From a virus, in the IMG/VR virus record IMGVR_UViG_3300049027_000085, positions 6,165 through 70,164 of that record: a DNA stretch of 64,000 bases; one strand, written 5' to 3'. Shown here one piece after another: positions 4,101 through 37,960 of this stretch; the stretch's first letter is position 1, and each line of letters opens with the position of its first letter. Both the position numbers and the translations under genes were made by a program. A model generated the notes under the pieces. The model ran no database searches. It saw nothing but the letters and a program-made list of their open reading frames with translations, and was not told the DNA's origin.

Positions 4101-7100
4101 GACGACCTCACCGGGTTGGCGAACCGCGGTGCTTTGGACCGCGCGCTGCCGGCCGCTGAGAAGGACCCCAACACCTCGGTCATAGCGTTCGACGCGAACA
4201 ACTTCGGGCAGATCAATAAGAAGGTCAGCCAACAGGCCGGCGACCAGGCGTTGAAAGACATCGCGTCCGCCATCCAGCAGGCAGCCAAGGAGGAGGGGGT
4301 CGGTGAACGCGTGTTCCGGCGCGGAGGCGACGAGTTCGTGGTGCTCGCCCCCAAGGCCAAGGCCGAGCGGGTCAGGAAGCTGGCCGAACAGATCTACGGC
4401 GACAAGGACTACTCTGGGGTGAAGGTCAGCATCAGTGGGACCGTGGGCAACACGTTCAACGAGGCTGACGCCACCCTACAAGACGCCAAGGCCGTCAAGA
4501 AGGGGTTGAAGTCTGCACCCAAGGGAAGCTTGAAGCGTACCTTCAAAGGCCCGGTAGAACAACAAAGTTATTACGCTAACCGTGAATTCCTTAAAAAGGA
4601 ACTGGACAAGGTCGGCCTAGAGGCTGACCCGGCGGTGATAGAAGCGACGACCGAAGCCCTCTTCAAAAAGTGGCCGGACCCCAAGACTTTTCGTAAAGCG
4701 ATCACAGACTTCATTCGGGATGAAACGAACGACCATGTCACCGACCGTGTTGAACTGCTCGACCTGCAGGGGAAGTTGAAACGTAAGAAACTCAGCCCGG
4801 ACGATCAAACCAAGGTCCACTACATCAAGAAGAAGCTCCAAGAGTACACAAGCGGCAAGATGCTCAGGCTCAGAGAAGAGTTTGACCTCGACGCCATCGC
4901 TGAGGACATACTGTTCCGAATGGCGCGTGCAGACTTCGGAGCAGCCAAGGGGGACCCAAACACCGGATACGTCATGAGCGACTGGACCGGGGAAGAAGTG
5001 GGCATCGGTGACATCGTTAAATACAGGGTAGATAAGCGCCAAGGAACGGTCGAGCGGATCGTGGATGAGTACGGCGAAACTGAGGCAGTGGTACGTCTGA
5101 CACACGACTCGCAGGGCCGTGAGATATTACCCCAGAATCAGCACAACGTGTCTTGGCCAGAACGTGACATCAGGCTGGTGACCCGCAACCCAGAGGTCAC
5201 CGGTCAGCCTGACCTTGCGCGTACATTCGACATTTACCTCAATAAGTACAAGGGCCTGTTCGACAAGCAAGACGTCAAGGTCGAAGAGTTTACCAAGCTT
5301 TTCGAGCGGGGGATCATCGCGCCGGCGCGTCAGTTGGCAGCCCCCTTGACCTACAGGCCGCCCTACACGGTGAGCAGCCTCTTGCAGCCGCAGTTTGACG
5401 ACTTCCGTGCGAAGAACAAATTGGTCAGCAAGGAGACGATCACCAGCATGGCGTTCAAGAACGCCAAGCCGCTGGAGAAGGAGTTTATCAACACTGTCTT
5501 AGCGAGCCCGATCTTCAAGGACCGAAAGAAGTTCCCCTTTAACGAGTTCGAGCTCGAGCTCAGCCGTGAACTGTTGCCGCTCAATGTGATTTACAGTGCC
5601 CACCACGCCAACTACGGCGTCAGCCGGCTGGGGGCGTACGACAGTTACGGTAAAGAAGAGACGCACATTTACGACGTGCCAGCGGTGAACGCCACGCTCG
5701 ACGCGATGGACCACGGGTATACAGCCCACTGGACCGACCAGTATGACGAAATGGTCGACAGGGCGCAGTACAAGGTCGACCAGGTCGTGAGCCCGTCGGG
5801 TGAACCGGTGTACCTCGTCGTTCCGGACATTGTTTATGACATCGACTACCCGAGCACCGGCTACGCCCTTGAACAGGAGTACCCACGCTGGGTACGTAAA
5901 AAAGGTAAGGGCGACAAGGGCGACTTCAAGTTGAACGAGGAGTCGCTGTACGAGGTGTCGGTCTTCAACACCCGCAACCGTGAGGATGCTGAGCTCGTGG
6001 CGAAAGACCTGACCCAACGCGTCAAGAGGACCAAGGGCCTGTTCGGGCACACGCGTGTCTGGTACAAGGACGACACGGCCTACATCGCGGAGATACAGGG
6101 TGAGGGCCTGCAACGGTTCACCTATCCGTACCATGGCGGCACCAAGAGCACGTGGACAACCAAGAAGTGGCACTGGGGCGCCTCACAATGGGACGTGTCG
6201 AGGAGCGTTTCTTCAGCTGTGGAAATGGTGTTCAACCACTTCCAAAAGCGGCACGCTGTTAAGGGAACCGTCGACGAGAAAATGGACGAGTTCATCGACT
6301 TCGTGATGGAAGGCAAGATGACGATGGACGCGCTCAGTGACATCAGTGACGCGACCACCGCCATCAAAAAGGGCGGTGAGTTGATGGACCGGATCGCCAA
6401 CGACATCCTCTCGGAGATAGAGAACCGTGTCGACACGGACCCCGAGTACCGCGACGATAAGGGCAACACCAAGCTGACGCCGGACGACCGCATGAAGGTG
6501 ATGAGCAAGGAACTGGCCAAAATGAGCGACCAGCTCCAGATCGGCAAGCTCCGCCGTCAGGCTATAGAGACGAAGCTAGAAGAGCTGAAAGAGTACGCCG
6601 AAGAGGTCGACCAAAAAGAGAAAGTCGCGTATGGGTTGATCAACAGTGAAGAGTACACGCAGGCGATCGACGAGCTGGTCCACCACATTCGTCTGGCCGC
6701 TGACCTTCGCCGTGACGATTGGAAGCTCGCGGTCGATAGGTTCAAACAAGACATGGAGGATAACCTTTGGGAAGAGTGGAAAACTGAGGCCGACGCGCGG
6801 ACCTGGATACACGACCGGCACCAAACTGGCGACAACCAGTTCTACCTGATCCGCTCCTACAAGGATCCGCAGACCAAAGAGATAAGCTACGTGCCGATGT
6901 CGGAGGTTAACTACTACGAGTACAGCACCAACGACCTGCACGGACTTTGGGATGACGCCTCATCCAAGGTGGAGACCTTGGCTCAAGAGATCATAGAAGA
7001 GACGTTCGAGGACCAGGTGAAGTTCGGAAGTGACTTCTTCTACATGTTGAAGAACCCGATGGTAGCACACTTCCGCGGCGGCCGTTGGGTCGAGCACGCG

Positions 7101-21485: not shown

Positions 21486-23372
21486 CTAAAATTGCGGGTC
21501 CTCTTCGTTCACCACGCCCGGCTGACGCTCGACCGGCCCCAGCACCAACCCGTGCTCGACGATCCTCAGCGTCACGGGGTCGAGGTCGATCGCCACCGTC
21601 CTGCAGGTGCCTGCACCGTTGCGCGCTTTCGTAATCGCTATGCTTCGTCTGTGCTGCACCACGTCTTGGCTGTCGTCAGCCTTGAGGACACGTGTGAACC
21701 CTGGATTCAACTCTTCCGAGTGCTGCAGCCAGATATTCGTGTGCGTGAAGCGGTGCCACGCCTGACCCCCCGCTGCCCCCTCAGTCCCCGGCTTCTTGAC
21801 GCCGGGCTTTTGGTGGGTGGTGGCGATCAGGCTCATTCCGGCGTCGTTGATGATGCTCTGCGCGGTGAGAACGAACTTTTGGTCACTCTCCCACTGCTTG
21901 TTGGCCATCTCCATGGCGGTCACCGGGTCGATAATGGCCACGCTGTAACCGGATGCCGCGATCTTCTCGAGCCACTGCAGCACCGCCTTGGGCGTCATCA
22001 TCTTCGCCTCCAACGTGGTGACGTGCTCGAAGTACGCGTCCAACCTGTCACGTACCGACATGAAGATCTCCTGGGCCTCGTCACAGTGCTCACGCTGCCA
22101 GATGGCGTCGGTGTACTCGGAACGCCCCGCCATCTGGGCGACGCACCGTTTCTGGTAGTCGATCTTGCCGTCCTCGAGGAACAGGGTGGCGCACCGGTCA
22201 CCTGCCTCGTTGAGACACCACCCAGCATACATCGCGATGAAGCTCTTCGCGGAGCCTGGGTTGCCGATCAGCAAGGTCGACTTGCCTGGCAGCGTCATCT
22301 GCGTCAGCTTGGTGAGGACCGGCATCCCCGGCAGCTCCACCAAACGGTAGTTCCCGTCGTGTATGTCGTAGAGGTGCTCCTGAAACTCGAGGCTGGGCGT
22401 CCACGGTATAGCCTGACGGAAGATCGACTCGAGCCGCGGCATCGGGTCGCCGTTGACCTTGGCGAGGAAGTCCGCGATGTCATCCTTCTCCTCAGGCTCC
22501 CAGCCGCCGATCCTCGTCACGTCGACGACCTTGATGGAACGCGCGAACTTCCTGATCAGCTCGATCACCTCGGTCTGGTACCGCTTGCCCGGCCGGTCGT
22601 AGTCACGCCAGATGGTGACGTCCTTATCCGTGAGTGGCGTCCAGTCGGTCAGGTCGGGAGCCTTACCGCCGCCCGGTGAGGTGGTCGCCGCCCAGTCAGG
22701 CATGTTCACCCTGGTGAAGTGCTCGACGCACTTCTCCCCCTCGACCACCAAGACATTTTGTGCAGTGGTGACCCGGCCGAGGTTGTAAAGCGGCCGGTTG
22801 TTCGGTAAGCTCTCGAAGTCCCACCCCTTCGCGGAGGTGAAGGTCGCCTGCAGGACGCGCTTGCCCTCGCCGGGGACGTCGAACCGGACGGTCGCGAAGC
22901 TGCACCCACCGGTCGACGGGTCGTCGTACTTGTGGATCGAACCGAGCGCGAAGTTGGGGTGCCGTGACAGATACTGCTGCACCAGCCCCTCGATCGTCGA
23001 CGGTCCGACGGGTACCTGACTCGGCGCGGCAGCTGACAGGTAAGTCATCGTCTGTTCGATCGACGACACTTCCTGCTTGAAGGCAGCCCGCAATGAGGTG
23101 TTGTTACGGAAAGCCTGCAAAGCGAAGTAGTCGAGGTGCAGGTCGCAGGCGTAACAGATGAAGTAGTAACCGCTGGGCAGCTCCTTCACCTCGGCGGACG
23201 GGTTCTTGTCGTTGTGGTAGGGGCAGAGGAACTTTCCGGATCCTGGCGGGACGCGTTTAACGCCGTCCTCCATCAGGATCTTCTCCATTCTGTACCGGTC
23301 CTTCTTGATCTCTGACTTCTGTTGTTCGCTCAACTCTGTGAAGTCTTCAGGGTCCTCTTGTTCTCTCAACAT
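21486..23372 (-). CDS. DNA primase-helicase (CHC2 zinc finger, TOPRIM, RecA/DnaB-like helicase)
   Basis: CPYH.DKNPS..CYAC, VVEGEK, DYD, DDIAD, GNPGSAKS, IIDP, ITKARNG. Confidence 0.85.
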   Translation of the reverse strand: MLREQEDPEDFTELSEQQKSEIKKDRYRMEKILMEDGVKRVPPGSGKFLCPYHNDKNPSAEVKELPSGYYFICYACDLHLDYFALQAFRNNTSLRAAFKQEVSSIEQTMTYLSAAAPSQVPVGPSTIEGLVQQYLSRHPNFALGSIHKYDDPSTGGCSFATVRFDVPGEGKRVLQATFTSAKGWDFESLPNNRPLYNLGRVTTAQNVLVVEGEKCVEHFTRVNMPDWAATTSPGGGKAPDLTDWTPLTDKDVTIWRDYDRPGKRYQTEVIELIRKFARSIKVVDVTRIGGWEPEEKDDIADFLAKVNGDPMPRLESIFRQAIPWTPSLEFQEHLYDIHDGNYRLVELPGMPVLTKLTQMTLPGKSTLLIGNPGSAKSFIAMYAGWCLNEAGDRCATLFLEDGKIDYQKRCVAQMAGRSEYTDAIWQREHCDEAQEIFMSVRDRLDAYFEHVTTLEAKMMTPKAVLQWLEKIAASGYSVAIIDPVTAMEMANKQWESDQKFVLTAQSIINDAGMSLIATTHQKPGVKKPGTEGAAGGQAWHRFTHTNIWLQHSEELNPGFTRVLKADDSQDVVQHRRSIAITKARNGAGTCRTVAIDLDPVTLRIVEHGLVLGPVERQPGVVNEEDPQF

Positions 23373-23386
23373 AGGTTGCTCTCCTT

Positions 23387-24250
23387 TCAGTTGTAAATTT
23401 CTTCCATACGCGCCTTCACCTCAGCCGGCCAGGTGTCCGGGTTGTAGCCGTAGAACTTCTGTGCGTCTTCAATGCCGTTGATCTTCCACGCCGGCGGGAT
23501 GTTCTTCTTCTCGCGCTCGGCGACACGACGCATCCACTTCTTCCACGCCGCGATCCAGCCTCCACCTTCAACGCATTTGTCTCCAGTCGCCGTGTAGTGA
23601 TCTATGAAATTCGCGTGTTCAACGGTCAGAATGTCACGCGTCAGCTGTTGGGGATACATTCGCTTCATCTCGTCGATCGTCTCTTGAGGCGGCTTGAACT
23701 TCGGATCGACCGTTGTTTTAACTGTTTTAACCTTCACCTCCTTGGTCGGAGTGGGTTCAGGATTCGGTGGGTCTGGGATCAGCGCGGGCTGTGTTTTTTC
23801 TATTTCGGAAGAGGTGTTAACCTCTTCCTTTTTATATTTACCTTTATACCAGACATTTTCGTCTGGGGCTGCAGACATTTTCGTCTGTAGGGCTACAGAC
23901 GATTTCGTCTGCAGGGGTACAGACGATTTCGTCTGTAGGGCCCTCACCGGATTACCAGGGAGGTAAAGGTGGCGGGCCTTAACTTCTTTGGTCTCAGGGT
24001 CTACGATCACCTCACGTTCTAGGTAACCGTATTCGACCAGTTTAGAGACGGATCTTCTGATCGATGTTTCTGTGGTTTTGGTCAATTCAGCTAGATAGGA
24101 GTTACGTGCGTAGCAGTAACCTTGCTGTGTGGTCAAGGCTGTAATTCGCCCATATAACAATTTTTCGGTCGATGTGAGCCGGTCGTCGTCGAGAACAATC
24201 GCAGGTATTACGGCGTAATACCCGTGATGAGGTTGATCTGGGTTTTCCAT
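23387..24250 (-). CDS. Replication initiator (lambda O/HTH_36-like)
   Basis: YYAVIPA.V..D.RL...KLLYG.I..L....GYC.A.NSYLA..LVEYGYL. Contains internal iterons. Start taken as ATG at 24250. Confidence 0.8.
   Translation of the reverse strand: MENPDQPHHGYYAVIPAIVLDDDRLTSTEKLLYGRITALTTQQGYCYARNSYLAELTKTTETSIRRSVSKLVEYGYLEREVIVDPETKEVKARHLYLPGNPVRALQTKSSVPLQTKSSVALQTKMSAAPDENVWYKGKYKKEEVNTSSEIEKTQPALIPDPPNPEPTPTKEVKVKTVKTTVDPKFKPPQETIDEMKRMYPQQLTRDILTVEHANFIDHYTATGDKCVEGGGWIAAWKKWMRRVAEREKKNIPPAWKINGIEDAQKFYGYNPDTWPAEVKARMEEIYN
23850..23935. repeat. Four palindromic 16-bp iterons (probable origin) next to an AT-rich tract
   Basis: CAGACATTTTCGTCTG at 23850 and 23872, CAGACGATTTCGTCTG at 23896 and 23920. 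AT-rich stretch at about 23826-23849. Confidence 0.8.
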
Positions 24251-24258
24251 GGTTAAAC

Positions 24259-24418
24259 AAAAAATGCCCTGAGCTGAAACCCGCCCGTGGTGACTCCGGC
24301 AGGTTGTCAACGGTCAAGCTAGCAACGCTACAAAGACAGAACGGGCCTCAGCTCAAGGCACTGCTGTTAAAAGAGTCTTGTACGTATTGTTAGCGTCGAT
24401 TGACGCCAGCTTGACCGT
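24259..24418 (-). promoter_or_regulatory. Structured leader of the initiator gene with alternative stems
   Basis: Stem A (24265-24277 with 24348-24360) is followed by a T-tract. Crossing stem B (24310-24320 with 24408-24418) is a perfect 11 bp. Confidence 0.5.
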
Positions 24419-26762: not shown

Positions 26763-28805
26763 ATGTTGATCAACACCAGGGAGGCCTTCTTCGCCTCTCT
26801 TGACAAGTTCACAGACACGATAGTCCTTGACACCGAGACCGACGGGCTCGACGTGTGGCAGGACAACAAGCAGTGCGGGATAGGTGTCTGCACCACGAAC
26901 GAGGAGACGTTCTACTACCCGTTCCGCCACGACGACGCCCGCAGCCCGTTACTCACACAGTTGGACGGGGAGCTCAACCTCCCGATGGACCTGCTGCACC
27001 TTCTGCTGGCGCGGATCTCACTGAGCAAGAAGATCATCGGCCACAACCTCAAGTTCGACCTGACCGCATTGGTGAAGGACGGCCTGGAGCTGCCAGACGA
27101 CGTCGAGATCGAGGACACCCTCTGCATGGCCCGGCTCTGCCTCCACGAACAGTACGCTGACATGGACCTTGAGAGCGTGGTCGACGCGATGCTGCCAGGT
27201 CAACAGGCCCACCGGTGGAAGACGGAGTTCAAGGAGTACCTGCGCCAATCCAAAGCTAAGAACTACGCCCAGGCCCACCCGAAGATCATGGCAGAGTACT
27301 GCGAGCGTGACTGCCTGATGACCTGGCGGGTCTACAACAAGATGGCTGAGTACATCACCGCCACCAAGCAGGACAAGATCAGGGAGCAGGAGAGGGAGCT
27401 GCTTCGGGTCGTCTGGGAGATGGAGCGCGACGGCCTGTACTTCGACCGTCAGTACGTCGAGGAGAAGATTGTCCAGCTCCGGGCCCGGCTGCTCGAGCTC
27501 GAGAAGGAGATCTGTGACGAGTTGGGCGTGGTGATCAACATCGGCAGCACGCCGCAGCTCACCAAGGCGCTTAACGACAAGGGGATATTCAGCCCCAAGC
27601 TGACGAAGGCCAAGAAGCAGTCGTGGGACAACGAGGCCATGAAGAAGCTTGGTCACCCGATCGGCGCGAAGATCCTCAACTACCGGTCGTTCCAGAAGAT
27701 GCTCGGGACCTACCTCGAGCCGCCGTTGAAGTGGGCAGACGACTACATGCACCCGAGCTTCAACCAGGCGCGCCCGATCACGGGCCGTTTCAGCTGCTCG
27801 AACCCGAACCTCCAGAACCTGATCAACGGCAGCTTCATCATCAAGAGCGAGAAGGTCGACAAGGAGAACACGAAAGCGCTGTCCGACGCGCTGCTCGGGG
27901 GTGGAGGCGTGGAACTCGCAGACGAGTTCGCTGACCTGATGGCGGTCAAGTTCAAGGGCACAGACAACGAGGTCGCGATCAAGAGGATGTTCGTCCCGCC
28001 GCCGGGCTACAAGCTGTGGTTGTTCGACGAGGACCAGATGGAGATGCGCGTGTTCGCTGACTACGTCGACGACCCGCTGCTCTCCAAGATGCTCGAGAGC
28101 GACAAGTTCGACTTCCACAAGTTCGTCGCGATGACGGTGTGGGGGGCCCAGCCCGGCAGTGACATGTGGAGCTTCTACCGCAAACTCGCCAAGGCGATCA
28201 ACTTCGGCCTGATCTTCTGCGTCGGCGACGAGAAGCTCGGGATGAAGATCCAGAAGACGACAGAAGAGGCCGGTCAGTACAAACTTGACTACTTCGCGCG
28301 CTTCCCGAAGGCGAGCCAGTTCATTCAGAACGTGATCGCCACGGTCAAGCAGCGGGGGTACGTGTTCAACCGGTTCGGCAGGCGGTACGTGATCGACCCG
28401 AACCGCGCCTACGTCGGCATCAACTACCTCGTGCAGGGGACCTCAGCCGACGTGATCAAGAACCGGATGATCGCCTGTGCGAAGTACCTCAAGTCGATCG
28501 GCGCGAAGAGCCGTATGGTGGTGCAGGTGCACGATGAGCTCGGGTTCTACATACACGAGTCCGAAGAGAGCTTCGTGCCGGCCAAGATCAAGGACATAAT
28601 GGAGGAGCGGACGATCAAGACGTTCCTGTCGGTCAAGGCGGAACGGGGCAACCCAAGCTGGGTGCAGAAGCAGCCGATGTGCGTCTACTGCGTGCAGCCG
28701 CTCACCAAGGAGGAGGACACCGGCGACGCGGTTCACCCGTGCGACGAGGAGCGCGCCAAGAAGGTCCGCCGGGTGCAGACCCGGCCGGCCCCGGTGGCAG
28801 CATGA
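26763..28805 (+). CDS. Family A DNA polymerase with 3'-5' exonuclease
   Basis: LDTETDG, GHNLKFD, YCERD, TGRFSCSNPNLQN, DEDQMEMR, KAINFG, NYLVQGTSAD, VHDEL. Confidence 0.95.
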   Translation: MLINTREAFFASLDKFTDTIVLDTETDGLDVWQDNKQCGIGVCTTNEETFYYPFRHDDARSPLLTQLDGELNLPMDLLHLLLARISLSKKIIGHNLKFDLTALVKDGLELPDDVEIEDTLCMARLCLHEQYADMDLESVVDAMLPGQQAHRWKTEFKEYLRQSKAKNYAQAHPKIMAEYCERDCLMTWRVYNKMAEYITATKQDKIREQERELLRVVWEMERDGLYFDRQYVEEKIVQLRARLLELEKEICDELGVVINIGSTPQLTKALNDKGIFSPKLTKAKKQSWDNEAMKKLGHPIGAKILNYRSFQKMLGTYLEPPLKWADDYMHPSFNQARPITGRFSCSNPNLQNLINGSFIIKSEKVDKENTKALSDALLGGGGVELADEFADLMAVKFKGTDNEVAIKRMFVPPPGYKLWLFDEDQMEMRVFADYVDDPLLSKMLESDKFDFHKFVAMTVWGAQPGSDMWSFYRKLAKAINFGLIFCVGDEKLGMKIQKTTEEAGQYKLDYFARFPKASQFIQNVIATVKQRGYVFNRFGRRYVIDPNRAYVGINYLVQGTSADVIKNRMIACAKYLKSIGAKSRMVVQVHDELGFYIHESEESFVPAKIKDIMEERTIKTFLSVKAERGNPSWVQKQPMCVYCVQPLTKEEDTGDAVHPCDEERAKKVRRVQTRPAPVAA

Positions 28806-28870: not shown

Positions 28871-28901
28871 TTCGCCGATTCTTTTGAAAGGAGAGCACAC
28901 C

Positions 28902-30461
28902 ATGAAAACCATGACTTTGACCGACAAGTTCACCGCCGCCCTTCTCGCAGGGACCCCGCTGATCGGGATCACCTGCTACGACCCGGAAGCCACCATGGCA
29001 ACCCTACACAAGGAGATAAAGAACCAACCCGTCATCCAGTGGGACTGCATACAGGGCTGGAGACCGCGCACCGACACGGGCAAGAACGCGATCAAAGAAG
29101 CGTGCAAGTCCGCTGACAAGGACGTCGTCGCCGGCAAGACCGCCAACCCGGTCGAGCAGTTAGAGGTCGCCGCCAACCTCCCTGAGGAAACGGTGCTGTT
29201 CATGATCAACAGCCACAACTACTTCGACAACCCGGCGTTCCTCCAAGCGGCGTGGAACCTGCGTGACGAGTTCAAGACGAACGGCCGGACGCTGGTGTTC
29301 CTCGCGCCGCACCTCAACATACCGGGCGACATCAAGAACGACGTGATCCTGTTCGACGAGGAGCTCCCTGACGCCGCCCAGTTGCGTGGGATCGTGAACT
29401 CCGTGATCGACCCGATGGTCAAGGCCAAGGTGTTCTCCCACGGCGTGACGGTCGACGACGCCGTGAGGGACCGCGCGGTCGACGCGCTCCGCGGCATTCC
29501 GGCGTTCGCCGCTGAACAGTGCGTCGCCATGGCGTCCACCGTCCAGGAGGCCGGCCTGCAGGTCGACCAGGTGTGGGAGTACAAGCGCAAGATGATCAAC
29601 GACACACCGGGCCTCAAGGTGTACGGCGGGACTGAGAAGTTCGACGACCTCGGCGGCTGCGACGCGGTCAAAACTTATCTGCGGCGCGTGATCGCCGGCA
29701 AAGACGCCCCGCGCGTGATCGTGTTCATCGACGAGGGCGAGAAGATGTTCGCCGGCGCCACCAACGACGTCGGAGACAACACGGGCGTGAGCCAAGACGC
29801 GCTGGGAACGACGCTCTCCTTCATGGAGGACAACGAGTGCGACGGTGCGGTCTTCGTGGGCCCTCCCGGAGCGGCCAAGTCCGCGATCGCCAAGGCGATG
29901 GGCAACGAGGCCGGCGTGCCGACGATCATGCTCGACTTCGGCGGCCTCCGCGGAAGCCTCGTGGGTGAAAGTGAGCGGAAGCTGCGCGAGGCGTACAAGA
30001 TCGTCGACGCGGTAGGCGGCGGCAAGGCGTTCTTCGTGATGACCTGCAACAAGGACGCGGCATTGCCGCCGGAACTTAAACGCCGGTTCACGAGTGGCAC
30101 GTTCTTCTTCGACCTCCCGACCCGCGAGGAGCGCGAGACCATTTGGAAGATCTACCTCGACAAGTACGGCTTCGATGACGTCGCGGTCAATGCGATCGAG
30201 TTCGACAAGGACTGGACCGGCGCGGAGATCCGCAACTGCTGCCGCATGGCGTACCGTCAAGGCATCAGCCTCGAAGAAGCGGCGCAGTACATCATCCCGG
30301 TCGCGGAGAGCGCTGCGGACCAGATCGAACGCTTGCGCAACTCGGCAGCCGGTAAGTACCTCTCGGCCTCGCGTGCAGGTAAGTACTCGCCGCACGTAGA
30401 AAAGCCGTCCCTGTCATCCTATGCTGAGTCTAAACAGCGTCAGGTGAAGACCAGCCGTTAA
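28902..30461 (+). CDS. Ycf46-like AAA+ ATPase with internally permuted ATPase domain
   Basis: Ycf46-type N-region. FIDEGEK precedes GPPGAAKS, then SLVGESE, TCN, LPPELKRRF, FFFDLP, WTGAEI. Confidence 0.85.
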   Translation: MKTMTLTDKFTAALLAGTPLIGITCYDPEATMATLHKEIKNQPVIQWDCIQGWRPRTDTGKNAIKEACKSADKDVVAGKTANPVEQLEVAANLPEETVLFMINSHNYFDNPAFLQAAWNLRDEFKTNGRTLVFLAPHLNIPGDIKNDVILFDEELPDAAQLRGIVNSVIDPMVKAKVFSHGVTVDDAVRDRAVDALRGIPAFAAEQCVAMASTVQEAGLQVDQVWEYKRKMINDTPGLKVYGGTEKFDDLGGCDAVKTYLRRVIAGKDAPRVIVFIDEGEKMFAGATNDVGDNTGVSQDALGTTLSFMEDNECDGAVFVGPPGAAKSAIAKAMGNEAGVPTIMLDFGGLRGSLVGESERKLREAYKIVDAVGGGKAFFVMTCNKDAALPPELKRRFTSGTFFFDLPTREERETIWKIYLDKYGFDDVAVNAIEFDKDWTGAEIRNCCRMAYRQGISLEEAAQYIIPVAESAADQIERLRNSAAGKYLSASRAGKYSPHVEKPSLSSYAESKQRQVKTSR

Positions 30462-30510: not shown

Positions 30511-32262
30511 ATGAGATTAGGAATACAGGCGAAATACGTAAGGGAAGTCATAGAAAAGATCGGCAAGGACGAGGCGTCATTCAGCATCGACCGGTGGAAG
30601 GACGGCGAGATCAGAGAGTACCTGGACTTCAGCAAGATGCGGACCGACGAGATCAAGGAGTTCGACAAGTTGCTGAAGCGGCTGGCGGAACAACCGTCCA
30701 CCAAACAGAAGTACGGTGCCGCATACAGGAAGTTCACCGAGTTCTTCACGCTGCTCACCGGTGACGTGGGCGGCAAAGCGATCAAGAAGCTGGACATGAT
30801 ACCGGCCGCGATCAAGTCTTACTTCAAGGACTCCGACAGAAAGTGGGTCTTCAAGGAGACGTCAGACGGCCTGCCCAACCCGTACTTCCTGACGAGGTGC
30901 TGGTACAAAGAGGCCCACTACCTGCGGAGCGGCGCTTACGTGCCCGCGACGACGCACCTCGTGATCACGGCGTGGCGGCAGGGCAAGCAAACCACCTCGT
31001 CCTTCTCGTGGCTGGCGAAGAACGTCGGCAAAGCGGGCAAGACGGTGCAGCAGCTGCTGTCGCAGCACGGGCTTCACATAGAGACCGACGCCGCGGTAGA
31101 GGCGTACTACGAGGAGTTCCACCGGTGCCTCGAGCTCCAAGAGCAGGTTGGGCTTCAGATGTCGTCACAGGGAACGGCGTTCCTCAAGGCTGAGAACAGG
31201 TGGTACTCACCAGCGGCTGTGGCAATGATACGTGAGGGCATCGCCACGAAGGTCGTGATCGAGGATCAGGATATTCGCAGCGATGACGACGAGTCGGAAA
31301 CATCCATCATGGACACCTTCTGGGACGTCGTCAAGGTCAGCAAGTTGCGCTCACGTAGACCGGTCTCCGACGACGACGATGAGGTAGAGGTCGAGGAGGT
31401 CGACGAGACAGACGACGACGAGAAGAAGCGGATCGAACTTCCGATCCACCCGTACCTCTACGTCTTCGACCTCGATAAGCACCAGTACGTCGACATTCAC
31501 ACGAAGAACCTGCTCGACTACAAGTGGAACAAGACGTTGGGCGATAAGCTGATCATCAAGGACGAGGACAAAAAGTTGATCGACCTCTTGATGAATCGCA
31601 CCGGGCAGAGCGTCAGCGACATCGTGTCCGGCAAGATGAACGGTGTCATAGTACTCGCTACCGGAAGCCCTGGGATCGGCAAGACACTGACCGCTGAGGT
31701 CTTCTCAGAGATGATCGAGAAGCCCCTCTACAATGTGCAGTGTTCACAGCTCGGCCTGAACGTCGATCAGATCGAGAAGAACCTCAGGAATGTGCTTGAC
31801 CGCGCTTCACGGTGGGGGGCGATCTTGCTGGTCGACGAGGCGGACGTTTACATCAGGAAGCGCGGCGAGGACATTCACCAGAACGCGATCGTCGGGGTGT
31901 TCCTGCGGCTGATCGAGTACTACCGCGGGGTGCTGTTCATGACGAGCAACCGGGGTGAAGAGATCGACGACGCGATCATCAGCCGTGCGACGGCATGGAT
32001 CAAGTACGAAAAGCCGTCTCCGGACCTCCTGGCGCGAATCTGGGATGTTCTGGGCAAACAGTACGGCGCGAACTTCAGCGACACGGACATCAAGCGTCTG
32101 TTGAAGATCCTGCCCGGCATCTCTGGCCGCACGGTCCGCAACCTGTTGAAACTTGCCAGGATGCTCGCTGGAGACTCACCGGTCACGGTCGACCTGATCG
32201 ACCAGGTCAAGGGGTACCAGCAGCTCGACGGGGACCCGCTGACTGAAGCGGCAAAAAAGTGA
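30511..32262 (+). CDS. AAA+ ATPase (canonical order) with long N-terminal region
   Basis: GSPGIGKTLTAE, LLVDEADV, FLRLIEYYRGVLFMTSNR, DDAIISR. Confidence 0.9.
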   Translation: MRLGIQAKYVREVIEKIGKDEASFSIDRWKDGEIREYLDFSKMRTDEIKEFDKLLKRLAEQPSTKQKYGAAYRKFTEFFTLLTGDVGGKAIKKLDMIPAAIKSYFKDSDRKWVFKETSDGLPNPYFLTRCWYKEAHYLRSGAYVPATTHLVITAWRQGKQTTSSFSWLAKNVGKAGKTVQQLLSQHGLHIETDAAVEAYYEEFHRCLELQEQVGLQMSSQGTAFLKAENRWYSPAAVAMIREGIATKVVIEDQDIRSDDDESETSIMDTFWDVVKVSKLRSRRPVSDDDDEVEVEEVDETDDDEKKRIELPIHPYLYVFDLDKHQYVDIHTKNLLDYKWNKTLGDKLIIKDEDKKLIDLLMNRTGQSVSDIVSGKMNGVIVLATGSPGIGKTLTAEVFSEMIEKPLYNVQCSQLGLNVDQIEKNLRNVLDRASRWGAILLVDEADVYIRKRGEDIHQNAIVGVFLRLIEYYRGVLFMTSNRGEEIDDAIISRATAWIKYEKPSPDLLARIWDVLGKQYGANFSDTDIKRLLKILPGISGRTVRNLLKLARMLAGDSPVTVDLIDQVKGYQQLDGDPLTEAAKK

Positions 32263-32338: not shown

Positions 32339-32728
32339 ATGTCACACATCACTCAGATCAAACTCGAGATCAAGGACCTCGAGGCCCTCAAGACGGCGGC
32401 TGCCATGCTTGAGCTCGAATACAAAGAGGGGGTCACCAAGCACAAGTACTACGCAGGCAAGTACGGCAAGTGCGACCACGTGATCAGCGTGCCCGGCAAC
32501 AAGGACGCCTACGAGATCGGCGTCGTGGCCAACCCGAACGGGACGTACAAGCTCAACTGGGACAGCTTCGCCGGCGGCTACGGGCTGGTTGAGAAGGTCG
32601 GCGAGAGCGCGTACAAGCTGAAGCAGGAGTACGGCGCCGCGGTCGCTGAGAAGCAGCTGCGCCGACAGGGGTACCGTGTCAAGCGACAGGTCGTGGACGG
32701 GAAGCTCGTGCTTCGCGGTGTCAACTAA
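32339..32728 (+). CDS. DUF1257 (Ycf35)-like protein
   Basis: MSHITQIKLEIKDLEAL..A...YEIGV....G.Y.L.WD...LKQEY...RRQGYRV. Confidence 0.75.
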   Translation: MSHITQIKLEIKDLEALKTAAAMLELEYKEGVTKHKYYAGKYGKCDHVISVPGNKDAYEIGVVANPNGTYKLNWDSFAGGYGLVEKVGESAYKLKQEYGAAVAEKQLRRQGYRVKRQVVDGKLVLRGVN

Positions 32729-32738
32729 GGAGGCCGTC

Positions 32739-32936
32739 ATGAAACAGCAAACAGAAATCGTCGTCGAGATCGACCGCGAGGGCAACCCGAAGGTCGAGGT
32801 GAAGGGTCACGTGGGCCCAGGTTGCAAGGAGCTCACCAAGCAGATCGAGCTAGCGCTCGGCGCAGCGGAGAGCGAGAACAAGAAGCCCGAGTTCTACCGG
32901 CAGGAGGTGAAGCATGTTGCTACCAATCGTCGTTAA
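32739..32936 (+). CDS. DUF2997-like protein
   Basis: EIVVEIDREG.PKVEVKG..G.GC.ELT..IE.ALG....KPEFY. Confidence 0.75.
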   Translation: MKQQTEIVVEIDREGNPKVEVKGHVGPGCKELTKQIELALGAAESENKKPEFYRQEVKHVATNRR

Positions 32937-33243
32937 CGAGGACGGATCGATCGAGCAGATCGTCACCGATGACATGGTCGCCTTCGAGGGGGAGGCGACC
33001 ACCACTAGGGCCAGCAACGTCGTGCCCGAGCCGTTGTTCAAGCAGCTCGTGTTCATCAAGCTGCGGGAGTGGTTCGGTGATCAAGGCAGGGTCGCGGACT
33101 GGACACGCCGTTGGAAGGGGCCGCACATCGCGTGCATGGTCGACGGTCCGGTCTTAGGCCCGTACCCCAGCCGGCAGGCGGCGTTGGACGCAGAGATGCG
33201 GTGGTTACTCAAGAACAGGTTCGGAGGTGAAAGTCATGAATGA
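32914..33243 (+). CDS. Conserved hypothetical protein of the AAA/DUF1257/DUF2997 neighbourhood
   Basis: RASNVVP...GPVLGPY.SRQAALDAE..WL. Confidence 0.6.
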   Translation: MLLPIVVNEDGSIEQIVTDDMVAFEGEATTTRASNVVPEPLFKQLVFIKLREWFGDQGRVADWTRRWKGPHIACMVDGPVLGPYPSRQAALDAEMRWLLKNRFGGESHE

Positions 33244-34308: not shown

Positions 34309-35514
34309 ATGAAAAACGAAACATTCACCGCAGAGCAGTTCACCAAGTTCGTCAAGGACATGTCCGCAGCAGTCAAGCGTGTCTACAACACGCCGGGGAT
34401 CGTCGATGAGATGACGGTCGAGCAGCGGAACGACTTCAAGGCCCGCGTCGAGAAGTACACCCCGAGCAACCCTGAGGGTCAGGGACGCAAGTCAACGGTT
34501 CTTTACACCCTCGAGACCACGGTCGCGGTCGAAGCCGCCTCCACCAACGGCAGCGTTGCCACGCCGGTCAACGACATGTCGGCTGAGGTCGCCAAGCGGA
34601 TCGCGGAAGAGAGCATCGTGATCGAGATTCACATCCGTCAGCCCGGGTTCACCAAGAAGATCGACGCGAACGACTTCCTTGACCGCAACGGCAACAAAGG
34701 CAAGGTCGAGTCCGACATCCTCCACGTGCACCAAGACCTGATCGACAAGCGCCACGTGAAGAACCTGATGGACCACCGTCAGAGCCTGCTCGACTACATC
34801 CGATCGTGGCAGGTGCCCGGCGGCATGTTGACGCCCGGCGGCGGTCAGTTCCTCGTGCCGCTCGCGGCTCAGGAAAAGATCTACGCCAAGATCGAGGAGT
34901 TCGGCGCCGAGCGTCAGGGCCTGCTCGACAAGTTCGCAGAGAGCTGGGACACGATCGTCGAGGAAGCCAAGAAGAAGCGTGGCGTCTTCTTCGACGACGG
35001 GGACTACCCGAGCTTCAAGTCGATCCGCGACCGGTTCACGCACGACTTCCGGTTCATCAGCAACAAGGTGCCCGACGAGCTGAAGAAGCTCGGCCTTGAG
35101 ATCTATCAGAAGGAGTTCGACAAGCAGATGCTGAACTGCGCGACGGCCGCGTCCGAGATTCAGGCGGCCCTACGTGAGGGTTTCCTCGGGTTGATCGAGC
35201 ACTTCACCGACCGGTTGGGGGTGGATGAGGAGACCGGCAAGCCGAAGCGTTTCAACGAGAAGCGGATCACGGACATCCGTGAGTTCCTCGAGACGTTCCA
35301 GGCGCGGAACCTGACGAACGACACGCAGCTCGCCGCCCTCTGTGAGAAGGCGCAGACGCTGATCGAAGGTGTGGACGCTGCCACGATCCGCAGCAACGCG
35401 GACGCCCGCGCGAGCCTCAAGCAAGCGTTCGACGACCTGACCACGGCGACGAACGAGCTGATCGGAACCAAGACCCGCCGCGTGCGGGTCGCGGCCGCCA
35501 GCAACGGACAGTAG
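34309..35514 (+). CDS. DUF3150-like protein
   Basis: FLVP..., GVFFDDGDYPS...IRDRF, NLTNDTQL..L..KA, IRSNADAR. Ends in RRVRVAAASNGQ. Confidence 0.6.
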   Translation: MKNETFTAEQFTKFVKDMSAAVKRVYNTPGIVDEMTVEQRNDFKARVEKYTPSNPEGQGRKSTVLYTLETTVAVEAASTNGSVATPVNDMSAEVAKRIAEESIVIEIHIRQPGFTKKIDANDFLDRNGNKGKVESDILHVHQDLIDKRHVKNLMDHRQSLLDYIRSWQVPGGMLTPGGGQFLVPLAAQEKIYAKIEEFGAERQGLLDKFAESWDTIVEEAKKKRGVFFDDGDYPSFKSIRDRFTHDFRFISNKVPDELKKLGLEIYQKEFDKQMLNCATAASEIQAALREGFLGLIEHFTDRLGVDEETGKPKRFNEKRITDIREFLETFQARNLTNDTQLAALCEKAQTLIEGVDAATIRSNADARASLKQAFDDLTTATNELIGTKTRRVRVAAASNGQ

Positions 35515-36780: not shown

Positions 36781-37253
36781 ACAGACCGATAGTGTTCCTA
36801 CAGAACTCGTACAGCCCGGTGTACGCCGGGAGGGAGTGGCCGAGGGAGAGCTGGCTGAGGGCGCTGGCGGCCTGCCGATCGGGGAAGATGCTGACCCACC
36901 TGGGCCAGCCGTGGGGCGTGATGCACAACACGACCCCTCAGGTCGGCAGGACGGCGAGCAGCAAACTGCCGCCGGACTACGATCACATGTTGAGGGTTAT
37001 CCAGGAATGTTCTCCGGCTTCTATCGTGGCCTGCGGCCAACAGGCGATCGACGCCGTGAGGCTGATCTGGGACGGGCCGAGGGTCGAGCTGCCGCACCCA
37101 GCATGTCGCTGGGTAAAGTCCACCTTGTATCAGGAGGGGAAACGTCTCCTGGACCTGCAGGTGAGGGGAGGGATGAACTTCCGCGCGAGGGTGTGGGAGA
37201 AGAAGGGTGAGCCGTTCAAGGTGGAGATCCTGCGGCAGGAGGTAAAGGTATGA
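36777..37253 (+). CDS. Uracil-DNA glycosylase superfamily-like protein
   Basis: VFLQN, SGKML, NTTP, IVACGQQA, LPHPA follow the UDG-fold motif order. Confidence 0.5.
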   Translation: MNRPIVFLQNSYSPVYAGREWPRESWLRALAACRSGKMLTHLGQPWGVMHNTTPQVGRTASSKLPPDYDHMLRVIQECSPASIVACGQQAIDAVRLIWDGPRVELPHPACRWVKSTLYQEGKRLLDLQVRGGMNFRARVWEKKGEPFKVEILRQEVKV

Positions 37254-37960
37254 ACGACAAATCACGCACCAACGAGGCGGCGGCGAAATGCGTATGTGGA
37301 CCGGAAGGGGCGTGCAAGCTGCACAAGGCCGTCATTTGCTCGAAATGCGGGCAGGTGGATGATTCGGGGCTGACCCCGAGGACGAACAGTGCAGCGGGCT
37401 GCACTCACGATTGGCAAGCGTTCACCAACGAGGCGGCGGCGCCCGATGACGCGGCGGTGGGGGAGGCTGTGGAGGTGCTGAAGCCAATCGTGGAGGAATG
37501 GTCGGTAAGGGATGCACCGATAGCGATTTACGGCAACGAGATAAAGGCTCTAGCTACCGCTATCGCCGCCCTCACGCCCCGCGACGACCCAGCCGCCGCG
37601 ACGGACGGGACGCTTCTGCCGTGCCCGTTCTGTGGCGGGGAAGCATCGGCCGCTACCAGCGGCGGCGGCGTGTATTGGGTGTTTTGTTCGCGATGCAAAG
37701 CGCAGGTGGATTGGCACCACACATCGCAGGAGGTGGCAGATACGTGGAACCGCCGTGCCGACCTGCCCCCCGCCGTGGTGCGCCGCATCGAGGAGGCGTT
37801 CGCGGGGAGGGTGAAGGCGGCATTGGAACTGGAGATATATTCCGACGAGGCGATCAAGGATGCTAGACACGACGGCAACCATCACCCGCACAGTTGGAAT
37901 CAGGGTGCGAAGAAGGTGTTACGGGCGATGGATGCTGAACTAGGGAGGAAGGGGGAATGA
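37250..37960 (+). CDS. Lar-like (restriction alleviation) zinc-finger mosaic protein
   Basis: LLPCPFCGGEA...VFCSRC...WNRR. Confidence 0.65.
   Translation: MNDKSRTNEAAAKCVCGPEGACKLHKAVICSKCGQVDDSGLTPRTNSAAGCTHDWQAFTNEAAAPDDAAVGEAVEVLKPIVEEWSVRDAPIAIYGNEIKALATAIAALTPRDDPAAATDGTLLPCPFCGGEASAATSGGGVYWVFCSRCKAQVDWHHTSQEVADTWNRRADLPPAVVRRIEEAFAGRVKAALELEIYSDEAIKDARHDGNHHPHSWNQGAKKVLRAMDAELGRKGE

Follow-up and report, generated by a model that had tools for sequence, protein, structure and literature searches.

A putative AAA ATPase gene of a metagenome-derived virus (IMG/VR record IMGVR_UViG_3300049027_000085, 70,164 bases, rated 55% complete), of which the 64,000 nucleotides from position 6,165 to position 70,164 were analyzed (hereafter the window), very probably encodes a two-domain phage AAA protein in which a unit made of strand beta3, bearing the Walker B motif, and helix alpha3 has been relocated ahead of the P-loop with the ATP site kept. 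The rewiring is confirmed as real and as common to a large lineage of phages and prophages. The first-pass annotation of this DNA had placed Walker B (29715) ahead of Walker A (29859), and both positions hold in the open reading frame, where the order along the chain is Walker B, Walker A, pore loop and sensor 1 rather than the canonical Walker A, pore loop, Walker B and sensor 1. Because the chain order differs even though the motifs and the predicted fold agree with those of the AAA family, the protein is classed as a variant of the AAA family and not as an ordinary member.

The reading frame (28884-30461, plus strand) is single and open, without stops, and reads ...RVIVFIDEGEKMFAGATNDVGDNTGVSQDALGTTLSFMEDNECDGAVFVGPPGAAKS...LDFGGLRGSLVGESERKLREAYKIVDAVGGGKAFFVMTCNKDAALPPELKRRF. 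The motifs succeed one another in it as FDDLGG with its helix, RVIVFIDEGEKMFAG...GVSQDALGTTLSFMED, CDGAVFVGPPGAAKS, ...LDFGGLRGSLVGESERKLREAYKIVDAV, GGGK, FFVMTCN and ...ELKRRF. Residues are numbered here from the TTG codon at 28884, which gives a protein of 525 amino acids (P0001). The ATG at 28902, 7 nucleotides downstream of AAAGGAGAG (28887-28895), is likely the true start of the gene, and the length of a database entry that is 100% identical to the window protein (P0002, 519 amino acids) fits this start.

In AAA+ and other P-loop ATPases, the order of Walker A followed by Walker B is regarded as fixed, and both profile models and annotation pipelines build on it. The effect on annotation of the window protein is that the Pfam AAA profile (PF00004, 45.7 bits, cut-off 21.2) covers 51 residues only (residues 323-373, aligned to positions 2-52 of 131), and that the PHROGs match to phrog_8638 is split into four separate stretches. 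A phmmer search of the PDB aligned residues 320-377 to the segment from Walker A through helix 2 of VAT, p97 and Cdc48, and residues 385-457 from sensor 1 onward, with approximately 48 target residues (the Walker B part) skipped between the two stretches. In one homologue (P0209), the Walker B part of the Pfam profile (positions 58-106) aligns to the upstream block (residues 263-309). A second, normally placed Walker B was looked for after Walker A in the window protein and is absent, the interval from helix 2 to the sensor-1 strand holding GGGK alone (AVGGGR in the consensus of an 87-sequence alignment of the permuted family).

Three block profiles were made from the 87-sequence alignment: B (residues 273-318, with Walker B), A (residues 319-380, with Walker A and the pore loop) and C (residues 381-430, with sensor 1). 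In Tunturiibacter phage Tunturi_3, whose gp103 is 34% identical to the window protein (tblastn), they match in the order B (280-319), A (324-383), C (389-431), the same as in the window. In four of four named normal-order phage proteins the order is A-B-C, with block B directly after the protein's own block A and before its own block C (25-47 bits): the block B profile matches residues 373-412 of Mycobacterium phage Corndog gp96 (47.5 bits), 404-441 of Agrobacterium phage JP1 gp048, 357-393 of Rhizobium phage vB_RleS_L338C gp050 and 353-389 of Aeromonas phage HJ05 gp65. The window protein was also aligned with Tunturi_3 gp103, Corndog gp96 and HJ05 gp65, and then with the nearest normal-order proteins (L159 and L130). 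Both alignments contain one homologous segment in two places: ahead of Walker A in the proteins of the window and Tunturi_3, and after helix 2 in those of Corndog, HJ05, L159 and L130. The Corndog segment after helix 2 reads VIVYIDEVEKALEG...GVSADALGAILTWMQD (VIVYIDEVEK...GVSADALGAILTWMQD). The N-terminal domain aligns over its full length with Corndog gp96, HJ05 gp65, L159 and L130, and all rows stay in one family in the second phylogenetic tree described below, which covers this domain plus the C-terminal part. Judged from these profiles and alignments, the Walker B strand-helix block is evidently a homologous unit that was translocated ahead of Walker A.

A search for homologues of the same order, which the first-pass annotation had proposed as a check, found B-A-C by the profile test in 268 of 268 homologous proteins from two protein searches and in all 80 IMG/VR loci retained from 217 relatives; the same order is present in the isolate genome of Tunturi_3. 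Among 57 loci in bacterial genomes and metagenome-assembled genomes, which by their record titles belong mostly to Acidobacteriota (Bryobacteraceae, Terriglobia) and also to Nitrospira and Planctomycetota, 38 hold complete genes with the B-A-C order. The remaining 19 are two B-A genes at a contig end, three fragments in which A runs straight into C, two smaller fragments and 12 normal-order genes (nine A-B-C, three A-B), all of the latter at 30% identity or less. The complete Nitrospira moscoviensis NSP M-1 chromosome (NZ_CP011801.1, 1451463-1462911) carries one permuted copy (L183), presumably in a prophage or island, with a DUF3150-like gene downstream. Loci obtained with normal-order queries are A-B-C in 75 of 80 cases; in four more, block B is too divergent to be detected but a gap of approximately 45 residues lies in its place, and one is without a block C match. 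A search of representative sequences returned 6788 clusters at E <= 1e-3 (1190 at E <= 1e-30), and each of the best 150 of the 6788 representatives aligns colinearly with the query along almost all of its length. A separate count of motifs by regular expressions gave two apparent exceptions to the order out of 121, which are extra chance matches of the motifs, the profile test having given 268/268.

Predicted fold, conserved residues and origin

AlphaFold2, supplied with an 87-row alignment, gave a confident model of the window protein (predicted local distance difference test (pLDDT) score 91.8, predicted template modelling score 0.87), comprising E278-282, H285-293, H301-316, E320-325, H332-343, E347-350, H362-378, E382-388, H396-401 and E406-408 (E, strand; H, helix) and then the helical lid. 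The strand and the long helix of the moved block (278-282 and 301-316) are part of this prediction, with a block mean confidence mostly above 90. The whole model (residues 11-492) aligns to the D1-D2 domains of p97, Cdc48 and AFG2 (Z 19.1, root-mean-square deviation (rmsd) 4.8, 400 residues aligned), and residues 11-240 are therefore taken as a D1-like domain without Walker motifs. The C-terminal domain resembles p97 D2 (6g2v; Z 16.8, rmsd 2.5, 200 residues aligned over model residues 245-493) and Vps4 (Z 17.1, rmsd 2.7, 210 residues aligned), and also matches spastin and FIGNL1, by Foldseek as well. Approximately 49 residues within 245-493 are left unaligned to p97 D2, a number that equals the size of block B and is consistent with its displacement, the comparison not reporting which residues they are.

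Coevolution within residues 245-432 was analyzed by mean-field direct coupling analysis of 340 sequences (effective number 259), and 29 of the top 70 couplings connect block B with block A or C. The first-ranked coupling (G285-M386) pairs the residue after the Walker B Asp-Glu with the sensor-1 strand, and those ranked 20, 64 and 84 (V280-F384, V280-A382 and 279-383) pair beta3 with beta4 in parallel register. The couplings ranked 2 and 32 (V278-G378 and R277-G379) link the beginning of beta3 with the end of alpha2, which is the joint of the chain in normal AAA proteins, and many others connect helix 301-316 (alpha3) with helix 362-378 (alpha2). Two couplings pair beta1 with beta5, and none pairs beta1 with beta3.

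The residues expected at an ATP site are conserved in the 340 distinct sequences of the permuted family over which they were counted. Walker B E284, Walker A K332 and S/T333, pore-loop G361, sensor-1 N389 and arginine finger R401 are present in 340/340, D283 of Walker B in 333/340 (Glu in the other seven) and arginine finger R400 in 324/340. GPPGAAKS and VIVFIDE fit the Walker A (GxxxxGK[ST], with a small-residue variant at position 331) and Walker B (hhhhDE) patterns, and the sensor-1 Asn and the second region of homology with its arginine fingers are likewise present. The pore loop is non-aromatic (L359-V360-G361). A two-residue deletion in the arginine-finger stretch (RRF, 30081-30086) accompanies the rearrangement in the permuted lineage. 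Three permuted homologues contain inteins, inside the P-loop block in two of them (P0164 and P0209) and, in the third (P0124, LAGLIDADG type, approximately 400 amino acids), at the new junction where helix 2 meets the sensor-1 strand. The first-pass annotation had interpreted the arrangement as a beta3-helix unit moved within the domain, a non-circular permutation with all catalytic residues kept; block profiles, alignments, fold prediction and coevolution agree with the move, and the invariance of E284, K332, N389 and R401 agrees with the rest. Its further description of the subfamily as active is suggested by this conservation of residues.

The proposed event is that in an ancestor the unit of beta3 (with Walker B) and alpha3, approximately 45 residues in length, shifted from the alpha2/beta4 gap to the alpha0/beta1 gap. 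The resulting chain would run alpha0-beta3-alpha3-beta1(P-loop)-alpha1-beta2-pore loop-alpha2-beta4(sensor 1)-alpha4(Arg fingers)-beta5-lid, with three new loop connections (AGKDAP, NECDG and GGGK). As the element ends joined by these loops would share one edge of the sheet and lie one to two strands apart, the sheet and the ATP site could stay AAA-like.

The permuted lineage appears to have arisen once. Phylogenetic trees were made from 42 permuted proteins (every second permuted locus) and 83 normal-order proteins, with the N, A, B and C-terminal segments aligned separately and then concatenated; L125, which has no block C match, was left out. In the tree of all blocks, the permuted rows form one side of a branch with a value of 100 in the Shimodaira-Hasegawa-like approximate likelihood ratio test (SH-aLRT), which corresponds to one change of state, and the closest normal-order rows are L159 and then L130. 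A tree from residues 1-270 and 386 to the end only (model LG+C20+F+G4), which excludes the A and B blocks and the junctions, again gave SH-aLRT 100 and one change, with long-branch warnings for L122, L154 and L160, all of them normal-order rows. The normal order is taken as ancestral because all other AAA proteins have it.

Alternative explanations

The probability that the odd order is a misassembly, chimera or frameshift in a metagenomic contig is close to nil, and at the level of the family this explanation is already refuted. It could draw on the incomplete, metagenome-derived nature of the record. The DNA itself is one open frame, and a 5346-nucleotide contig of run X1, possibly the source sample, spans 29300-30400 with 0 differences and no joints, while pieces of 151-319 nucleotides from three other studies (runs X2-X4) tile parts of the stretch with 0 differences and bridge both the alpha0/Walker B junction (X4 record 25) and the helix 2/sensor 1 junction (X3 record 19, with 31 letters on the short side). 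The order recurs throughout the 268 proteins and 80 IMG/VR loci, in an isolate phage (Tunturi_3) and on the complete chromosome of N. moscoviensis. Misassembly, which the first-pass annotation had named as a possible undoing of its reading, is excluded because the order is family-wide and the 5346-nucleotide contig is colinear. A different history leading to the same product is improbable: either a partial tandem duplication (A-B-A-B-C) that lost its first A and second B, or a block left over from an AAA domain that once lay upstream. Permuted proteins usually arise by duplication and later loss, and a D1-like domain already lies upstream in this one; against this, the 268 proteins and 160 chosen locus reading frames include none with a doubled A or B block, the intermediate of such a route (a weak extra block C match in L155, 10.8 bits, was disregarded), the normal-order sisters have the same N-domain with alpha0 directly ahead of Walker A, and block B follows alpha0 of the active domain instead of lying within the D1-like domain. 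In any case this alternative bears on the route only and leaves the present-day protein unchanged.

It is highly improbable that the upstream Asp-Glu block does not serve its own P-loop, either in a nucleotide-binding pseudo-ATPase or by insertion of beta3-alpha3 into the neighbouring subunit (a three-dimensional domain swap). The small-residue variation before the P-loop lysine and the shortened arginine-finger stretch could be read in favour of a pseudo-enzyme, which would not need E284, K332, N389 and R401 to be invariant; direct coupling analysis does not separate contacts within a chain from contacts between chains of a homo-oligomer, yet the linker from alpha3 to beta1 is approximately four residues long (NECD), which is not enough to reach into another subunit for a swap, the moved block is confidently predicted in the monomer model, and the couplings ranked 2 and 32 tie beta3 to its former joint with alpha2. 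Returning to the relocation of the beta3-alpha3 unit with its ATP site kept, several observations weigh against it. Run X1, the sole run with a contig across the whole stretch, may be the source of the window DNA, and no piece from runs X2-X4 bridges the Walker B/Walker A junction with 31 letters on each side. At position 331, which precedes the P-loop lysine, the window protein has Ala where Gly is usual (A 192, G 124, S 18 and T 3 of 340 in the family, a small-residue variant), and the arginine-finger stretch KRRF lacks two residues relative to the R[KA]GR[FW]D of normal-order relatives. Both trees came from a "quick" search, with SH-aLRT values only and no bootstraps, and are unrooted. The AlphaFold2 model and the couplings derive from alignments that overlap, which makes them only partly independent. 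Neither a beta3-beta2 nor a beta1-beta4 pair is found among the top 100 couplings, so that one flank of beta3 only is supported; beta3 probably still lies beside beta4 in the folded sheet, whose order in AAA domains is 5-1-4-3-2, as judged from AlphaFold2 confidence and coevolution. Finally, the partners encoded in the gene module described below have no annotated function in PHROGs, and none in the literature searched.

Gene module and proposed function

The features of the permuted gene and of the genes downstream of it are listed in Table 1.

Table 1. Permuted AAA ATPase gene, its domains and blocks, and the genes that follow it, in window coordinates
Feature	Position	Strand	Remarks
Permuted AAA ATPase gene	28902..30461	+	Reading frame opens at TTG 28884; 519 amino acids from ATG 28902
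N-terminal alpha/beta domain, residues 11-240	28914..29603	+	D1-type AAA fold without Walker motifs; common to normal-order relatives
FDDLGG motif and helix alpha0, residues 253-271	29640..29696	+	Now runs into the Walker B strand, not the P-loop strand
Moved block B, residues 273-318	29700..29837	+	beta3 with Walker B (VIVFIDE, residues 278-284, 29715-29735), EK motif, loop, helix alpha3 ending SFMED
Block A, residues 319-380	29838..30023	+	beta1, Walker A (GPPGAAKS, residues 326-333, 29859-29882), alpha1, beta2, pore loop (SLVGESE, 29955-29975), alpha2
GGGK turn	30015..30026	+	Links alpha2 straight to the sensor-1 strand; site of Walker B in normal AAA proteins
Block C, residues 381-430	30024..30173	+	beta4 with sensor 1 (FFVMTCN, 30030-30050; TCN, residues 387-389), alpha4 with Arg fingers R400/R401 (30081-30086), beta5
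Helical lid domain, residues 414-505	30123..30398	+	WTGAEIRN motif
Second AAA gene	30511-32262		Directly downstream of the permuted AAA gene; normal order (GSPGIGKT ... LLVDEAD ... FMTSN)
DUF1257 gene	32339..32728	+	PF06868, 25.8 bits, cut-off 22.2
DUF2997 gene	32739..32936	+	PF11211, 42.6 bits
Small conserved gene	32914..33243	+	No known family; Tunturi_3 gp99 match, E 2.1e-14
Acidic protein gene, then BRCT gene			Between the small gene and the DUF3150-family gene
DUF3150-family gene	34309..35514	+	PF11348 in 12/30 family members

Neighbours of the AAA gene were counted by profile searches in the flanks of 80 permuted and 80 normal-order loci, and every match is on the same strand as the AAA gene. 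Of these neighbours, DUF3150 shows the tightest linkage to the permuted AAA gene, being found near it in at least 77/80 permuted loci versus 12/80 normal-order loci, followed at the permuted loci by DUF2997 (40/80, and 43/80 at normal-order loci), DUF1257 (36/80 and 41/80) and the small conserved gene (32/80 and 7/80); all of these counts are minimum values, given the truncation of some flanks and the small size of the proteins. Tunturi_3 holds the full module (gp102, gp101, gp99 and gp96), HJ05 and L338C carry DUF1257 and DUF2997, and JP1 carries DUF2997. A passage of PMC4284462 places DUF2997 and DUF1257 (ycf35) together in Synechocystis. Tunturi_3 gp96 (L001 7699-8658) is annotated as an HNH endonuclease, a label that looks wrong because the protein matches, at E 1.9e-85, the DUF3150-like profile made from the neighbour of the permuted AAA gene in the window.

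The second AAA gene has its best match in phrog_29662 ("ATP-dependent protease"), with the IteA/IetA models below cut-off. Like the polymerase and BRCT genes of the window, it was found by tblastn in the flanks of 0/80 permuted loci, and its absence from 80/80 other permuted-locus flanks therefore marks it as an accessory of the window phage. PADLOC returned generic AAA matches to IetA only, and NCBIfam sub-threshold AAA matches only. Literature searches yielded nothing on phage modules for DUF1257 and DUF2997, nothing related for DUF3150, and nothing for a Tunturiibacter phage ATPase.

The DUF3150-family protein is predicted to consist mostly of long helices with a small sheet (pLDDT 82.9). 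Its model has no Foldseek match in the PDB at E <= 0.001; in BFVD it matches viral DUF3150-like uncharacterized proteins (E 7.4e-13) and, weakly, a protein of Mycobacterium phage Dylan (E 0.045). A predicted complex of the AAA and DUF3150 proteins scored 0.00 with a mark of 0.32, which leaves binding neither supported nor opposed.

A family A DNA polymerase gene (26763-28805) precedes the permuted AAA gene. Farther upstream on the minus strand are a primase-helicase-like gene (21486-23372), whose CHC2 zinc finger and AAA_25 matches are weak, at or below cut-off, and an HTH_36 gene (23387-24310), both of which agree with a replication region. A reading frame at 37250-37960 contains a Lar restriction-alleviation domain in the middle of the protein (PF14354, 49.9 bits). 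Sampled words of the window occur in soil and rhizosphere metagenome runs, with X2-X7 each containing 0.21-0.36 of them; no RNA run is listed among those that share them.

Within the module, the permuted AAA gene stands where its normal-order relatives stand, which argues for the same job. The best guess is a classic-type AAA protein remodeller that works with the module proteins. The permuted protein may form a ring and hydrolyze ATP; such a ring would remodel or unfold a protein client via the pore loop, and would act on or with the DUF3150, DUF1257 and DUF2997 proteins in early or middle infection, beside the replication genes. It is unlikely, though worth stating, that the rewiring is not neutral, and that the protein is a mechanically distinct AAA motor recruiting a DUF3150 partner, which would make it the first natural example of an active P-loop ASCE (additional-strand, catalytic-glutamate) core permuted non-circularly. 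If this were true, the covalent ties of alpha2 to the sensor-1 strand rather than to that of Walker B, and of alpha3, which ends in Met-Glu-Asp, to the P-loop strand, would mean that the nucleotide state is relayed differently to the pore and to the neighbouring subunit, and the recruitment of DUF3150, with its excess at permuted over normal-order loci, would have come with the rewiring.

Whichever job the permuted protein performs, a widespread module without assigned function is now defined, comprising the AAA, DUF3150, DUF1257 and DUF2997 genes and one small gene. It occurs in soil phages and in elements, prophages or otherwise integrated, of Acidobacteriota, Nitrospira and Planctomycetota, and two cultured systems carry it, Tunturiibacter phage Tunturi_3 and N. 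moscoviensis.

Comparison with known systems

The closest relatives of the permuted protein are normal-order two-domain phage AAA ATPases (Corndog gp96, vB_RleS_L338C gp050, JP1 gp048, HJ05 gp65 and phrog_8638), which are 21-30% identical to the window protein. They have in common with it the N-terminal domain with invariant W53, D54 and G58, the FDD.GG motif and alpha0, a non-aromatic pore loop of the VGESE type, the T-x-N of sensor 1, the TGAEI motif of the lid, and DUF1257 and DUF2997 genes nearby. They differ in that the Walker B block follows helix 2 and that the arginine-finger stretch is R[KA]GR[FW]D versus RRF.

The classic-clade proteins p97/Cdc48 (D1-D2), Vps4, spastin, FIGNL1, AFG2 and Rix7 have the same fold by structure comparison, and the segment from Walker A through helix 2 is 30-40% alike to that of the window protein, as judged by eye. 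In contrast to them, the window protein has a different chain order in the core, a D1-like domain without nucleotide motifs, and Leu-Val-Gly in the pore loop, where classic AAA proteins usually have a triplet of an aromatic residue, a hydrophobic residue and glycine.

The papers found on Ycf46 and AAA proteins mention no permutation in title or abstract, and the rearrangement is undescribed in the literature searched, which comprised titles and abstracts, with subscription journals and supplements outside the scope. The lineage constitutes a natural experiment on how far a fold and a motor cycle depend on the connectivity of the chain, a test case for structure predictors and order-independent aligners, and a template for engineered permuted motors.

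Permutation with retention of the active site has precedents in other enzymes. YlqF, YjeQ and YqeH are circularly permuted P-loop GTPases that keep their active site. DNA methyltransferases, according to passages of PMC10853773 and PMC7824862, include natural permutations that also keep theirs, and the reference list of PMC10853773 has an entry on permuted methyltransferases (Bujnicki 2002). Whereas the permuted GTPases and methyltransferases are circular permutations with new termini, in the window protein the termini are kept, an internal block has apparently moved and three connections have been rebuilt, and the permutation is therefore non-circular.

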